Shown in pieces: positions 369 to 8,285 of a stretch of 17,247 nucleotides of DNA. Source of the stretch: Candidatus Altarchaeum sp. (GTDB lineage Archaea > Altiarchaeota > Altiarchaeia > Altiarchaeales > Altiarchaeaceae); NCBI GenBank assembly GCA_018260615.1, contig JAGWDQ010000147.1:1-17247 (forward strand), read 5' to 3'. The notes under the pieces were generated by a model. That model worked only from the letters and a program-made list of their open reading frames with translations. It was not told where the DNA came from and did not search any database. Within the stretch, counting starts at the first letter, position 1. Each line of letters begins with the position of its first letter. Made by a program: the position numbers and the translations under genes.

Positions 369-2048
369 TTATCTGTTTTGCTCTTTGATTCTTAAATCAT
401 AAGCATATCCGGGTGCAATGAGCCACTTTAAGATTGTCATTTCAACAAACAGCCCTGTTTCATCACCTTCTAATAAAATTTTTCCGTCCTTCACGCCCAT
501 AAACCGTTTATCTGCATTTTTTATGAATATCCCGTTGAAGTTGCAGTCATTTACCTCTTTTATGGTTAAATTTTGATAGGCAGTTCTCGTCGGAGATAAT
601 TCACATTTGCTGCCATTTATCAAATACGGCTTTATATAAATTTGTCTTCCGTTTTGAACAAAATATGCCTGAATATACCCAAGTGTTCCCCTGATTTCAT
701 CATAGACAGCTAATGGCTTTCCGCTGACATCTTTATCTAATGCTATACTTAAATTTTCAAGTTGCCCGATTGCTTCAATAACCTCTGGAATTGAACATTT
801 AATATTCTTATTCATACACAAAAATACATGGCATGAAACCATATTAACCACCTCATAACCTTGTTTTACTGTAATCGTTCCGAAATTTTTCCCCAAAAAT
901 ATGTTGTCTTTGTTTCCTCCATTAATATAAATTTTATATCCTTTTTCCTGATCGGCAATTGATTCAAATTCATAAGCACAATACTCACTTGCATTTGAAC
1001 CATCTGTATGGACAGATATTTTTTTATTTGTGATTTGTTCTAAAGGAATTTCCGCCTTTACTTCAACACCTGAAATATTGTATTTATTTATGATTTGCAC
1101 AAATACATCCCTGCTCGCATTTTCATAAATTTCTGTTCCGTCAAAAATTATCTGTAATCGGTTAGTCCCTAATGTCCAGTTTGAAATGTCTAAAACAAAT
1201 GTATTGTGTTCAGCAGTTAAATTAGCGAGCAATTTTCCATCAGATATTAGTTTTAATGTCCGGTTTGGAATATTTCTCCCCAGGTAATCTTTTATATCCG
1301 CAGATATTGTTACATTTTTATCCTTAACTTCAACCTCTTTGCTGTCTGCAAAAATTTCAACAGGAATCTTTGATATTACAATAATACTGTTAGCTGCGTT
1401 TGCATCTTCGTAAATTTCATTCCCTTTATATTCTCCGGTTATTTTTAACTCTCCGATATTTAAATTTTTAACTGTGAAATCCGCAAAACACTCGTCATTT
1501 GTTAAATTTTTTCCGAAAAATTTGTCATCGGCATATAGTGAAATTTCTTTATCTGCACAGTCCTCTTCGCCACCGGTATTGAAATGTGCCCTCACGCTTA
1601 ATGAATCCTTTAAATAAATTCTTTCATCCGGCTCAAAACTTATATCCAAAACAGTCATCCGTTTATAAATTTTAAGTGTGGCTGATGCAGAGGCATTATT
1701 AAACTGGGCATTTCCTGAAAAGACCGCTTTTACTTTGTATTCTCCCGCACTTAAATTTCCATAGTATTCCATAAAAACATTGCTGCCGTTTGAATTTGCA
1801 TTACCTATAAATTGAGCATCCACATAAAAACTTACACTTCCGTTTACGCTTTCATTAAATTTTGCGTAAAAAACTGTCGGCGAGATATTTACGGGAGATA
1901 ACATTTCATTCATTGTTAAAGTTACATTTTTCTTTTGTTCAACACATCCGCTCAAAGTTAACATTAAAACAACTGCTAAAATACCTAAAACACCCAAAAC
2001 CCCGGCTAAACTTTTCTGCATAGCCCCCAAATATACATCCAATTTCAT
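369..2048 (-). CDS. Secreted lipoprotein with about three Ig-like (Big-type) repeats and a Cys-containing C-terminal domain; adhesin/surface-protein-like
   Basis: 559-aa ORF. A hydrophobic signal ends in lipobox LSGC (Cys35). Three repeats of an F/Y-x-G-N/T-x-x-Y/F-x-x-A motif (FSGNAQFNNA, YKGNEIYEDA, FDGTEIYENA) are typical of archaeal adhesin Ig-like domains. An alternative start lies at 2021 (MQKSL). Confidence 0.75.
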   Translation of the reverse strand: MKLDVYLGAMQKSLAGVLGVLGILAVVLMLTLSGCVEQKKNVTLTMNEMLSPVNISPTVFYAKFNESVNGSVSFYVDAQFIGNANSNGSNVFMEYYGNLSAGEYKVKAVFSGNAQFNNASASATLKIYKRMTVLDISFEPDERIYLKDSLSVRAHFNTGGEEDCADKEISLYADDKFFGKNLTNDECFADFTVKNLNIGELKITGEYKGNEIYEDANAANSIIVISKIPVEIFADSKEVEVKDKNVTISADIKDYLGRNIPNRTLKLISDGKLLANLTAEHNTFVLDISNWTLGTNRLQIIFDGTEIYENASRDVFVQIINKYNISGVEVKAEIPLEQITNKKISVHTDGSNASEYCAYEFESIADQEKGYKIYINGGNKDNIFLGKNFGTITVKQGYEVVNMVSCHVFLCMNKNIKCSIPEVIEAIGQLENLSIALDKDVSGKPLAVYDEIRGTLGYIQAYFVQNGRQIYIKPYLINGSKCELSPTRTAYQNLTIKEVNDCNFNGIFIKNADKRFMGVKDGKILLEGDETGLFVEMTILKWLIAPGYAYDLRIKEQNR

Positions 2049-2260
2049 TTTATCTATCTTTTTATTTTTTATCTATCTTTTATTTATCTTTTATTTTTTT
2101 TATTTATCTTTTATTTTTTTTATTTATCTTTTATTTATCTTTTATTTATCTTTTATTTTTTTTATTTATCTTTTATTTTTTTTATTTATCTTTTATTTAT
2201 CTTTTATTTTTTTTATTTATCTTTTATTTTTTTATCTTTTATTTTTTTATCTTTTTTTAC
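2049..2260. repeat. Low-complexity minisatellite built from TTTATCTTTTA (11-mer) and TTTTTTTTA (9-mer) units
   Basis: 13 ATCTTT cores at 2056, 2075, 2086, 2106, 2126, 2137, 2148, 2168, 2188, 2199, 2219, 2234 and 2249, spaced mostly 11 or 20 bp. There is no G on the + strand from 2024 to 2261. Confidence 0.95.
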
Positions 2261-2264
2261 AGTC

Positions 2265-2798
2265 CTATAAAGTATAAGGATTTCTATTAAGGGATTCTCT
2301 TTGTTTCTTTGTCGTTCTTGAACAGGGCTTACAACATTCTGCAATATTGGAATCGTTTAGCAATTGTTTATGCTTCCTGAAAGATTGTTTGTTATAAATT
2401 TTAGGTGCAGGTATCTCGTTTTGATAAATACTGGAATCTTTTAAAAAAGGATATGCATCTCTATCGTTAGAACAGATTAGTTTGCATTTTGAGACATAAA
2501 CAATTGCAACTAAATGGGAATCGTTAAAATGGGGGTTATTGACTCGCTTTTCAATTTCACTTTGTTTATCATCAACTTTTTTATTACAAATGTATACTGC
2601 TTTACCTATATCATTATACAGCTTTATAAGTTTTAATTTACCTGCTTTTATCAGTTCTGTTTCATATTTGGTTCCGCCATATACAATCTTTCCCTTTCCG
2701 TTATTTATCCAGTCTAAAACCGGTTTAAATTTCTCATGTTCGTTTGTTTCTGCATTAAAAACAAGACCTAATGCATTAGCGTCAATTATGATACACAT
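2265..2798 (-). CDS. PIN-domain (VapC-like fold) putative ribonuclease
   Basis: 177 aa. N-terminal IIIDAN plus acidic residues D6, E48, D93 (NDSHL) and D112 (CSND) in the spacing typical of the PIN catalytic tetrad. Starts 5 nt after the ATPase stop. Confidence 0.75.
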   Translation of the reverse strand: MCIIIDANALGLVFNAETNEHEKFKPVLDWINNGKGKIVYGGTKYETELIKAGKLKLIKLYNDIGKAVYICNKKVDDKQSEIEKRVNNPHFNDSHLVAIVYVSKCKLICSNDRDAYPFLKDSSIYQNEIPAPKIYNKQSFRKHKQLLNDSNIAECCKPCSRTTKKQRESLNRNPYTL

Positions 2799-2803
2799 TT
2801 TAA

Positions 2804-4135
2804 TTAAATTCGAATTAGTTTTAATTCCTCCGTGATAAAAAATTCTCTAAATGATTTAGGCTGATTTTCATCATATGCGCCATTTTCATTTATTTCAATA
2901 GAATGAATCCGATTTCCCTCGCTGGTTCTTTCAAAGAATAATACCTGAGCGTTAATTTTTTTGTCGTTCGATTCTTCTTTATACTTTCTGTTTACACAAT
3001 ATCTAAATCTATCTAATATATAATCACTGTGGGTCTCAATAATAAATTTTTTATTTTCAGAATTATTTGCATTAAAGAATAATTCACCAACAGCCGCTTG
3101 AGCTTTGGGGTGCAAATGTATTTCCGGTTGTTGCATTTCAAACCATTCTCCTTTATTTCCAGATAATGTTTCTACAAGAACAGGCAAAACCTGGGAAACA
3201 CCATATCCGACATTTGAAATTTTAAATGGTTCTTTACCAAGATATATATCTAATTCGAATGGAGATGCTTTTTCATCACCAAAAGATTTTATACCCACCT
3301 TATCAAATAAACCACTATTTTTTCCAAAATTTTCAATGTTTCTTGTTACGTCTTTTTTCAATTTAATATGATCAGCAGCAATTATTTCTTTTAATAAATA
3401 AGGTATGTGCCTGCCTTCCGAAGAAAAACTTCGTTGTTTATAACTACCGTATATTTTTTCTGGCTTTGCTCTTATTGGACCTATCCATGTACTACGAGCC
3501 AGTAATAAAAAAATAAACGGACTAATTGATTTTTTCTTTAAGGTACTGATAGATAGTATAATGGATAGTAAAATACCTGCGCCATTATTAGAAGATAAAA
3601 TGTCCCTATTAACACCTTTGTTTGAAAGTTCTTCAAAATATTCATCAGATAATTTTTGGTTGGCAATCCATGTTTCAAAAAAGGAGAGTTTATTTTTAAT
3701 ATTTTTGGTTTCTTTTGGACTCGCTTTATACTTAACTCCTTTAGAAGTAATTATTACCTGTACCTCATTGTCATCAAAGAGGTAACTGACTTCTTCAATT
3801 ATTGGAACTCCTTTCTTTTCTTTAAATTTCATTAATATTGCAATAGATTCATTTTCATCTTTTTTACTACTTATATCTTTAAAAATACCGACTTTAAAAT
3901 AGTTTTTATTATCAGATTTTTTACTCACTATCTCGTCAAAATATCCTAAATCAGTTTCAAATTCCTCCGTAGAAAAATCTCCGGTAATCCAAAAATTTGG
4001 ATTTGACAAGATATTTATTAATGAAAGAATGGATGTTTTCCCTGTGCTATTTTCACCAACCAGAAAATTTATATCCTTTAGTTGAATGAAAGTGTTCCTG
4101 AAACCCCTAAAATTATCTACATATAATATTGCCAT
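2804..4135 (-). CDS. ABC-type/AAA_15-AAA_21 family ATPase with DUF3696-like C-terminus (PtuA/AriA/OLD-related defence ATPase class)
   Basis: 443 aa. N-terminal VDNFRGF, Walker A GENSTGKTS, signature-like NVGYGVSQVL, Walker B/D-loop FEMQQPEIHLHP, H-loop IETHSDY, and C-terminal IEINENG...QPKSFREFF. Confidence 0.85.
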   Translation of the reverse strand: MAILYVDNFRGFRNTFIQLKDINFLVGENSTGKTSILSLINILSNPNFWITGDFSTEEFETDLGYFDEIVSKKSDNKNYFKVGIFKDISSKKDENESIAILMKFKEKKGVPIIEEVSYLFDDNEVQVIITSKGVKYKASPKETKNIKNKLSFFETWIANQKLSDEYFEELSNKGVNRDILSSNNGAGILLSIILSISTLKKKSISPFIFLLLARSTWIGPIRAKPEKIYGSYKQRSFSSEGRHIPYLLKEIIAADHIKLKKDVTRNIENFGKNSGLFDKVGIKSFGDEKASPFELDIYLGKEPFKISNVGYGVSQVLPVLVETLSGNKGEWFEMQQPEIHLHPKAQAAVGELFFNANNSENKKFIIETHSDYILDRFRYCVNRKYKEESNDKKINAQVLFFERTSEGNRIHSIEINENGAYDENQPKSFREFFITEELKLIRI

Positions 4136-4283
4136 TTTATTTAATTTATTTGTCTTTAATTACTTTTATTTTTTAATCTTTTTAATTACCTTTTAATTTT
4201 TGAACCAAAACTAAATCATTTTTTGATTAAACCACATTTTACACATCCAACCAAATTTTTTTAATTTCTGATTGTTTTTCGTA

Positions 4284-4333
4284 ATTTACTAACGAATTGA
4301 GTAAATATCCGAGCGTAAGTGAGGTTATTTACT
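4284..4333. repeat. Degenerate copy of the interspersed palindromic element
   Basis: CCGAGCGTAAGTGAGGT (4309-4325) resembles CCGAACGCAGTGAGGT (8086-8101). It is bracketed by the inverted repeat AGTAAATA (4300-4307) / TATTTACT (4326-4333), with an alternative arm ATTTACT at 4284-4290. Confidence 0.55.
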
Positions 4334-4394
4334 ATCGAATCAATGTTAATTTTGTTGTTTTTGAGGGTGATGTGCGGAATGTAGGTTAAATTTA

Positions 4395-5336
4395 TTAAAT
4401 TATTTCCCCGCATCCAACAACCCTGTTGTCCGGCAAATCAGGTCTTAAAAGCCATATCCTGTCCCCCGGCACATAAGCAAGTTTCCAGTCAAGACCTATT
4501 TTTATTGTTCCTTCTTCGCCGGAATTTAAGCCACCTTCCTTAATGGTTGCCCGTAATTGCTGAAGCCCGCAAACAAAAACATATTCTCCTCCGGAGCTGA
4601 CAGGGTATTTCCAAAACTTCTGAACCTTAAATTTAACATTAATTTCTCTTGCCACATTCATTGTTCCTTCTTTTGCCAGGACATAACCCCTTTCTAATTC
4701 TGCTACACTTACACCTTTTAAACTTAGACCTGCCCTTGAACCATTTTCCGCCTCATTTTCATCCTCATCATAAATTTGAATTGATTTTACAGTTGCCTTT
4801 TTATCTGTCGGATACATAATAAATTCATCAAATTTCCTGACCTTTCCATAAGCTGTCCCCAATATTACGGTTCCCACACTTTTGACATCAAAAAAGTGAT
4901 CAATCGGAACTTTTGTAATGCCTGCGGCTGAAGAAATGTCTTCCTTAGTTAATATATCCATTATTGCAATTCTGTCATTATCAATAAATTTATAATTCTG
5001 AAGCACTGTGCCTTTAATTAGCGGCAAAACCTGTTCCTTGATTAAATTTTCCCCCATTACAATGTAGCCCTTTTTTATACCTGCACATTCCAGTGCCACG
5101 ATTATTTCTCCCAAAGTTCTGCTTATTGCATCTACCTTAACCAAGGCAGCATCAGTCATGTTTATTGCATACGCCATTGGCTGAACTTTTCCCGGATATT
5201 CTGTCGGAACTACAAAACTTATTGCCTGTGATTCTTCCTTATAACTGTAAAGAGTTATATCGCTTTCCGTTCCTTTTTTTCCCAATACATCCCCAAATGT
5301 GTTGTCCCCTAATACCGCAATGTTCTTAAATTTCAT
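4395..5336 (-). CDS. Archaeal SelB-like protein (aSelBL): EF-Tu/SelB domains II-III with a degenerate G domain
   Basis: 313 aa. LGKKGTESDITLY motif, no intact GxxxxGK[ST] P-loop, domain II motif PIDHFFDVKSVGTVILG, KSIQIYD...GSRAGLSLKGV, and C-terminal RVVGCG. Confidence 0.85.
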   Translation of the reverse strand: MKFKNIAVLGDNTFGDVLGKKGTESDITLYSYKEESQAISFVVPTEYPGKVQPMAYAINMTDAALVKVDAISRTLGEIIVALECAGIKKGYIVMGENLIKEQVLPLIKGTVLQNYKFIDNDRIAIMDILTKEDISSAAGITKVPIDHFFDVKSVGTVILGTAYGKVRKFDEFIMYPTDKKATVKSIQIYDEDENEAENGSRAGLSLKGVSVAELERGYVLAKEGTMNVAREINVKFKVQKFWKYPVSSGGEYVFVCGLQQLRATIKEGGLNSGEEGTIKIGLDWKLAYVPGDRIWLLRPDLPDNRVVGCGEII

Positions 5337-8023: not shown

Positions 8024-8285
8024 TCACACAAAGCCACAGAGTATTTTGAAAACGCAGTTTTCAAATCGCAGAGATTTGAAAATCTCCGAACGCAGTGAGG
8101 TGATTTTAAATTCGCAAAGAATTTAAAATATGAGAGTGAAACGAACTTAAGTTTTGAAAATCTCCGGGCAATTTTAAATTTCTCATAGAAATTTTAAATC
8201 TCCGAACGCAGTGAGGTGAGAGCGAGGTGACTGCGTCTCGGTGTGAGAAACCAAAAATAAAGAATGAACTTTCCTGTACGATAAA
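8024..8285. repeat. Composite mosaic palindromic element (BIME/MITE-like), copy 2
   Basis: 24-bp direct repeat AAATCTCCGAACGCAGTGAGGTGA at 8080-8103 and 8196-8219. Hairpins at 8045-8065, 8058-8082, 8103-8129 and 8171-8199. Outer ends are shared with the copy at 178-267. It sits between the convergent cmk and signal peptidase genes. Confidence 0.9.

Follow-up and report, generated by a model that had tools for sequence, protein, structure and literature searches.

A two-gene ABC ATPase-PIN cassette of Candidatus Altarchaeum as a candidate defence module related to HEC-03 and Menshen

Pairs of an ABC ATPase and a nuclease are a major theme of prokaryotic immunity, represented by OLD, Gabija, Septu, PARIS, Menshen and the HEC systems. 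Here we describe a candidate of this kind, an ABC ATPase gene followed by a gene for a stand-alone PIN-domain protein, at positions 2265-4135 of a 17,247-nt stretch of DNA from the archaeon Candidatus Altarchaeum sp. (assembly GCA_018260615.1, contig JAGWDQ010000147.1; the whole stretch is referred to below as the window). Two described systems bear most directly on this pair. HEC-03 (Hma-embedded candidate 03) consists of an ABC ATPase and a VapC-like PIN protein; it reduced phage plaquing in E. coli, with both genes needed, was toxic on induction, and has a PIN that was likened to the VapC ribonucleases (Payne et al. 2024 preprint, bioRxiv 10.1101/2024.01.29.577857). The preprint names the ATPase HEC-03A and the PIN HEC-03B, whereas the PADLOC model names are reversed; the PADLOC models are PDLC04147 for the PIN and PDLC04148 for the ATPase. 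The second system is Menshen (Millman 2022). It is built from a ParB-DUF262 sensor (NsnA), an ABC ATPase bearing a DUF3696 tail (NsnB) and a protein in which an inactive PIN precedes a C-terminal nuclease (NsnC); in AlphaFold 3 models, two NsnB DUF3696 tails have the NsnC PIN-like domain between them (Li et al., NAR 2025, PMC12065111).

With moderate confidence, we regard the window's pair as a module for antiviral defence or abortive infection built on an ATP-gated PIN nuclease: the ATPase would do the sensing and gating, and the PIN protein would serve as RNase effector; on this analysis its functional kind would be that of HEC-03 and of Menshen's NsnB-NsnC half. Judged by sequence comparison, the pair is a widespread sister family of those two systems, unmodelled in current libraries, and extends a known kind of immunity. 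The two genes are arranged as follows.

2804..4135, minus strand: ABC ATPase gene, 443 aa (P0001), OLD-ABC / AAA_15 type
2799..2803, minus strand: spacer of 5 nt between the ATPase stop and the PIN start
2265..2798, minus strand: stand-alone PIN-domain gene, 177 aa (P0002), VapC-like fold

Both open reading frames (ORFs) lie exactly where an initial annotation of the window, made without database searches, had placed them, with the ATPase first and the PIN second on the same strand, 5 nt apart. That annotation knew of no named, characterised ATPase-PIN system, a view that the HEC-03 description overturns: a named, tested system exists, and both of its genes are required for phage defence. As in HEC-03, the window holds a two-gene operon in which an OLD-ABC ATPase is followed by a stand-alone VapC-like PIN of ~160-180 aa with conserved acidic residues, and neither system has a VapB. 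The ATPases of HEC-03 and of the window's family both carry a PE.HLHP block and have the catalytic Walker B glutamate replaced, giving EQ in most of the HEC-03-like ATPases examined and QQ in the window's family. However, P0001 matches the HEC-03 ATPase model only partially (5e-27, aa 267-429) and more weakly than the NsnB model, P0002 is without a match to the HEC-03 PIN model PDLC04147 (E > 1), and PADLOC 2.0.0 would not call the locus HEC-03. In Bacteroidota, ATPases with an EQPE Walker B are followed by 168-181-aa proteins that do match PADLOC HEC-03A, at 1e-11 to 3e-32.

The best PADLOC matches of P0001 are NsnB (4e-41, 140 bits), the HEC-03 ATPase (5e-27), PDC-M55A and AriA (2e-24), with PtuA at ~1e-9. 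Across the signature, Walker B and H-loop block P0001 is 38% identical to NsnB, which has EN where P0001 has QQ; the window's ATPase further resembles NsnB in that arginine replaces the Q-loop glutamine, the signature is GxG, Walker B is degenerate and the C-terminus forms a DUF3696-like tail (sub-threshold in Pfam), and the partner encoded after it likewise has a PIN fold. For comparison, two genuine Menshen loci were taken from Ca. Magnetobacterium, and their NsnB proteins score 323-356 bits against the NsnB model compared with 128-143 bits for the PIN-linked ATPases. Unlike in Menshen, no NsnA (ParB-DUF262 + ParBDB) gene stands beside the pair, in the window or at 73 related loci, the DUF262 genes of the host being on other contigs; and in contrast to the inactive PIN of NsnC, the window's PIN keeps its catalytic residues, is 177 aa long and has no C-terminal nuclease domain.

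A quick maximum-likelihood tree (IQ-TREE) of 39 ATPases resolves two clades, each with an SH-aLRT support of 99. The first holds all 23 QQ ATPases, including that of the window, 22 of them with a PIN downstream and one (L102) without; the second brings together NsnB, the HEC-03 ATPases and additional EQ-type ATPases whose partners are of other kinds. Exact membership of HEC-03 was rejected on the unmatched PIN model, the partial ATPase match and the position of the ATPase in the other major clade, and membership of Menshen on the missing NsnA and the single-domain PIN with its catalytic residues kept; the ATPase itself gives mixed signals, with NsnB as its best PADLOC match and NsnB-like motif changes on one side and a separate clade on the other. 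The initial annotation had named an exact match to a known system as something that would overturn its proposal, and the pair is neither HEC-03 nor Menshen. We place it as a sister family of the two because its architecture is HEC-03-like but the sequence-based membership tests for both systems failed. Separately, several NsnB/HEC-03-like ATPases with an EQPE or AQPE Walker B precede partners that have no PADLOC match or significant Pfam match: ATPases of ~458 aa with 284-300-aa partners (L097, L099, L100), of ~528 aa with 336-364-aa partners (L108, L119), and one of 441 aa with a 162-aa partner (L098). These look like other unmodelled ATPase-effector pairs.

The sensor-effector logic that the initial annotation had drawn from Septu and PARIS fits the strict linkage, tight coupling, co-evolution and insertion described below, as well as HEC-03, although NsnB and NsnC of Menshen are far closer comparators than the systems it named. 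PARIS (AriA-AriB) and Septu (PtuA-PtuB) are two-gene defence modules built, as proposed for the window's pair, on an OLD-ABC/AAA_15 ATPase and a distinct nuclease effector held by it. Where the window has a PIN protein they have Toprim (AriB) or HNH (PtuB), and their ATPases, with different inserts and C-termini, are only distant relatives of P0001.

Linkage of the two genes is strict. A scan for PIN loci, taking one genome per species, gave 73 loci spread over Bacteroidota, Chloroflexota, Nitrospirota, Acidobacteriota, Zixibacteria, Bacillota, Pseudomonadota, Planctomycetota and Methanosarcinaceae, and in all 73 a P0001 homolog (26-45% identity) lies directly upstream on the same strand, bearing out the adjacency that the initial annotation had proposed to check. 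In these relatives the two genes mostly lie -4 to +6 nt apart, a spacing that points to an operon, possibly with coupled translation. When neighbouring ORFs of the 73 loci were clustered, the ATPase and the PIN were the only recurrent families, the next largest cluster occurring in 6 loci, and no third conserved gene was found. In the reverse direction, an ATPase profile run against 401 Bacteroidota genomes found nine QQ-type ATPases, eight of them with a PIN downstream. The ninth (L102, G393:C1:1620892-1624386) has no PIN downstream in any frame and is near kin of the PIN-linked L101 and L116; its effector may have been lost or replaced. ATPase and PIN distance matrices correlate strongly (Mantel r 0.82, reached in 0 of 999 permutations), and both proteins have therefore been inherited as one unit. 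The pairing is not due to chance. The PIN family is large, with 2,085 clusters at 50% identity (E <= 1e-3), or 1,608 at E <= 1e-10, and its best 150 representatives are all stand-alone proteins of 140-231 aa.

Six Bacteroidota loci (L013:6529-9532, L018, L019, L027, L034 and L041) have the same four genes, of ~123, 441, 209 and 218 aa, right after the ATPase-PIN pair; the block may constitute a second module of defence-like character that moves along with the pair. Scans of the pair's neighbours also returned Nuc_deoxyrib_tr (five matches) and AAA_21/mad3-like (four matches).

P0002 itself falls below the Pfam cut-off for PIN (E 0.047), with no NCBIfam match and no PADLOC match at E <= 1, and its family profile gave chance matches only (TBP and similar) against PDB sequences. 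Among 25 relatives, Pfam matches PIN_3 in 17 and PIN in 7. The fold is clear from an AlphaFold model built with 25 homologs (pLDDT 92.5, pTM 0.88), which superimposes on M. tuberculosis VapC with a VIA Z of 10.9 over 122 residues (2.4 A rmsd). Nearly all of its best structural matches are PIN proteins, the next ~30 being VapC, FitB, SMG6, Nob1 and others, and Foldseek assigns it to PIN proteins with a probability of 1.0. From this predicted structure we are confident that the family is PIN, with a VapC-like fold. The acidic tetrad D6/E48/D93/D112 read by the initial annotation is invariant in 25 close homologs; in a distant branch (proteobacterial, chloroflexal and planctomycetal; 20-34% identity) D6, E48 and D93 are invariant and position 112 is acidic. 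P0002 thus combines the Rossmann-like fold with the three to four conserved acidic residues that define the PIN superfamily, and it is most likely a metal-dependent nuclease effector, in particular a VapC-like RNase. A C-terminal extension (~aa 137-177) carries a Cys-rich CCKPC motif. Cysteines C2, C105, C109, C155, C156 and C159 are conserved in the main PIN clade, as an N-terminal MC, a CKLIC and a C-K-P-C in the C-terminal extension, but not in the distant clade, and may form a metal or redox site.

P0001 belongs to the AAA_15/AAA_21 type, as had been called from the sequence (Pfam AAA_15 3e-22, AAA_21 3.5e-16), and shows the Walker A, signature-like motif, PE.HLHP Walker B block and H-loop that mark the OLD-ABC / AAA_15 ATPases. 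Its description in the initial annotation as DUF3696-type holds as a resemblance, not as a Pfam call, because the DUF3696 score is under the cut-off (E 0.013, 16 bits versus 22). Along the protein the following elements are recognised.

aa 27-35: Walker A, GENSTGKTS, intact
~aa 46-212: Insert 1, variable
R222: Q-loop position, with Arg in place of Gln
aa 310-312: signature, GYG
Q335 Q336: Walker B, QQPE
aa 367-371: H-loop, ETHSD
~aa 395-443: C-terminal beta-hairpin and helix, DUF3696-like

An alignment of 65 PIN-linked ATPases shows an invariant Walker A (GENSxGKT/S) and, in 62 of them, arginine in place of the Q-loop glutamine; the GYG signature, ETHSD H-loop and QQPExHLHP Walker B block recur, with the glutamine pair (QQ) of Walker B invariant in all 65. 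A profile match to the solved OLD ATPase 6p74 (2e-13) aligns QQ on the EE dyad of that enzyme. Walker B E-to-Q mutants of ABC ATPases keep ATP binding and are impaired in hydrolysis. Since Walker A is invariant and QQ falls on the EE dyad, ATP binding is probably kept in the QQ-type ATPases and hydrolysis probably impaired. Conservation is lowest in Insert 1, which is beta-rich and helical and has top-residue frequencies of 0.23-0.39 compared with 0.61-0.70 in segments of the catalytic core, and the C-terminal hairpin and helix are conserved.

The QQ pair could be read further, as a natural 'E-to-Q' trap, binding ATP with hardly any hydrolysis, through which the module would sense nucleotide state rather than a protein or DNA trigger. 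ATP binding would then keep the ATPase dimer closed round the PIN, the dimer would open and release the active RNase when ATP or the nucleotide pool falls as the virus replicates, and the EQ sites (HEC-03-like) and EN sites (NsnB) would be milder versions of the same principle. We hold this version to be doubtful; if true, it would provide one mechanistic rule for the entire Menshen/HEC-03/QQ superclade.

The P0001 model (pLDDT 84.6) has an ABC head like those of Rad50, SMC, PtuA and GajA. That the nearest solved relatives of the ATPase, OLD among them, are DNA-handling ABC heads is compatible with direct restriction, in which the ATPase would detect foreign DNA or DNA ends and a DNase of PIN fold would cut the invading DNA; DNases do occur in the PIN-like superfamily (PMC5499597). 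Structurally, however, the PIN best matches VapC ribonucleases and not PIN-like DNases of the FEN/5'-nuclease type, Pfam recognises no DNA-binding domain in P0001 or P0002, and the HEC-03 PIN too was likened to VapC ribonucleases (10.1101/2024.01.29.577857); we judge a DNA-directed role to be quite improbable.

For the ATP-gated RNase module that we favour, we propose a sequence of three steps. The ATPase would oligomerise through its ABC head and hold the PIN inactive, probably by its C-terminal DUF3696-like tail. A viral cue, sensed through the variable Insert 1, through the nucleotide state of the hydrolysis-impaired ATP site (QQ) or through both, would then change the complex. The PIN, freed or activated, would cut RNA, and virus production would be stopped by abortive infection or growth arrest. 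The physical binding of ATPase and PIN, the trigger, the RNA substrate and the antiviral effect are elements that we infer; a prediction of the 1:1 complex using alignments of both families scored 0.13 and is evidence in neither direction.

Several results weigh against this proposal. Function is transferred by architecture only, because the PIN family has no detectable sequence homology to the HEC-03 PIN or the NsnC N-domains and the window's ATPase lies in a clade separate from the HEC-03 and NsnB ATPases, so that the transfer crosses families. In hhalign comparisons the PIN family aligned with HEC-03 PINs at a probability of 0.8-5%, over the N-terminal I-D-T-N strand only, and showed no significant similarity to the N-domains of two NsnC proteins, which leaves homology beyond the shared fold unproven. 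A VapC-like fold does not prove an RNA substrate. Copies on mobile or viral DNA were sought by tblastn of the PIN against phage and plasmid collections and by a pattern scan of IMG/VR, and neither search returned anything. Nor was the enrichment in defence islands that the initial annotation had put forward as a check seen in a crude neighbourhood test (PADLOC and Pfam batch scan, with tallies per family, not per gene), in which 141 neighbours from 41 loci were mostly metabolic or cell-envelope genes with few defence ATPases.

Neighbourhoods without defence-gene enrichment would also suit a toxin-antitoxin-like addiction module with no antiviral role, in which the PIN is a VapC-type toxin and the ATPase an unconventional antitoxin that stabilises the cassette or its carrier DNA. 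The VapC-like fold with its intact active site, the label 'VapC family toxin' that NCBI gives to some P0002 homologs, the order of neutraliser first and toxin second, which resembles type II toxin-antitoxin operons, and the sporadic, insertion-like distribution of the pair all point the same way. VapBC operons indeed share with the window the VapC fold, the D-E-D-D acidic site and the position of the PIN as the downstream gene of two. In contrast to VapBC, however, the partner is a 443-aa ABC ATPase, whose invariant P-loop and variable insert are more machinery than an antitoxin needs, and no VapB-like small DNA-binding protein is present or conserved. On the latter point the initial annotation stands: a 50-aa ORF lies upstream of the ATPase in the window, but no small ORF is conserved up- or downstream over the window and the 73 loci. 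Moreover, the pair was not found by tblastn on plasmids, where addiction modules are common, and HEC-03, with the same architecture, gave phage defence that depended on both genes. We therefore rate a pure addiction module as unlikely, while noting that toxin-antitoxin and abortive-infection roles may coexist and are not mutually exclusive.

The cassette is an accessory insertion in its host. In three genomes of the same genus its flanking genes are contiguous, 44-73 bp apart, and the corresponding ~2003-4385 of the window is therefore a 2.4-kb insertion, which sharpens the statement of the initial annotation that the pair sits between unrelated genes. The segment comprises the two genes, an AT-rich tandem array and the AT-rich region upstream, as listed here with the small ORF.

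2003..4385: inserted segment, approximate extent, based on flanking genes 44-73 bp apart in three same-genus genomes
2061..2255, inside the insertion: AT-rich tandem repeat array, units of ~20, 51 and 62 nt, directly 3' of the PIN gene
4136..4394, minus strand: AT-rich intergenic region upstream of the ATPase, presumed operon promoter
4261-4413: small ORF, 50 aa, unconserved, upstream of the ATPase

Inspection of the junctions revealed no target-site duplication, integrase or terminal repeat. Of the repeat DNA that had been reported on both sides of the pair, the 3' array at 2061-2255 was confirmed; upstream of the ATPase there is no counterpart array, just AT-rich low-complexity DNA with 71% resemblance. 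The same-species assemblies L088, L089 and L090 differ in how far the next gene lies from the PIN stop, and the length of the array therefore seems variable. The same cassette occupies the same site in several metagenome assemblies; L091 was considered as a second insertion site and rejected, being the same locus with local rearrangements, and thus gives no evidence of recent mobility. The window's ATPase falls within bacterial sequences in the tree, as would fit a horizontally acquired cassette.

This distribution bears on a further explanation, that the pair serves host RNA processing or quality control unrelated to conflict. PIN domains do act in rRNA maturation as well, and Nob1 and Utp24 are among the fold matches of P0002 at Z 7-8. 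Yet among 61 genomes of this small phylum the PIN was found in one and in none of the other 60, the site is empty in three congeners, and the pair is distributed patchily over unrelated phyla in heterogeneous genomic contexts; such a housekeeping role is strongly disfavoured and, in our estimate, very improbable indeed.

The gene upstream of the ATPase in the window encodes a GTP_EFTU_D2 protein. In keeping with an archaeal host, OapB is also encoded in the window, and L31e and eIF-6 lie just past it in other assemblies of the same species. In one of these (L088), a few kb from the cassette, past L31e/eIF-6 and beyond the position of the window's left end, there is an NTP_transf_2 and HEPN pair of the MNT-HEPN toxin-antitoxin type (L088:10725-11464) and a SLFN_AlbA_2 gene from 12528 onward. 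Elsewhere in the host genome (G000), contigs C140 (L074), C129 (L075), C98 (L078) and C44 (L079) carry two ~570-aa GmrSD-like DUF262 proteins and two weakly related AAA_15-like ATPases; the host therefore has further candidate defence genes. A 29-46-nt sequence is present in the window as inverted copies at 131-177, 8058-8103 and 8192-8220 (80-93% complementary, ~8 kb apart), and has the look of a family of dispersed, hairpin-forming repeats with no relation to the cassette.

The family defined here, in which an apparently active PIN is joined by a uniformly QQ ATPase, is large and is recognised by none of PADLOC 2.0.0, Pfam and NCBIfam. It joins HEC-03 and Menshen's NsnB-NsnC half in a single broader group, and supports the view that the 'inactive PIN' adaptor of Menshen descends from, or parallels, an active PIN effector. 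Models for the QQ-ATPase/PIN family would improve defence annotation in archaeal and environmental genomes, and the archaeal copy, with its clean empty site, offers a well-defined minimal unit for an ATP-binding switch that may gate a PIN nuclease.

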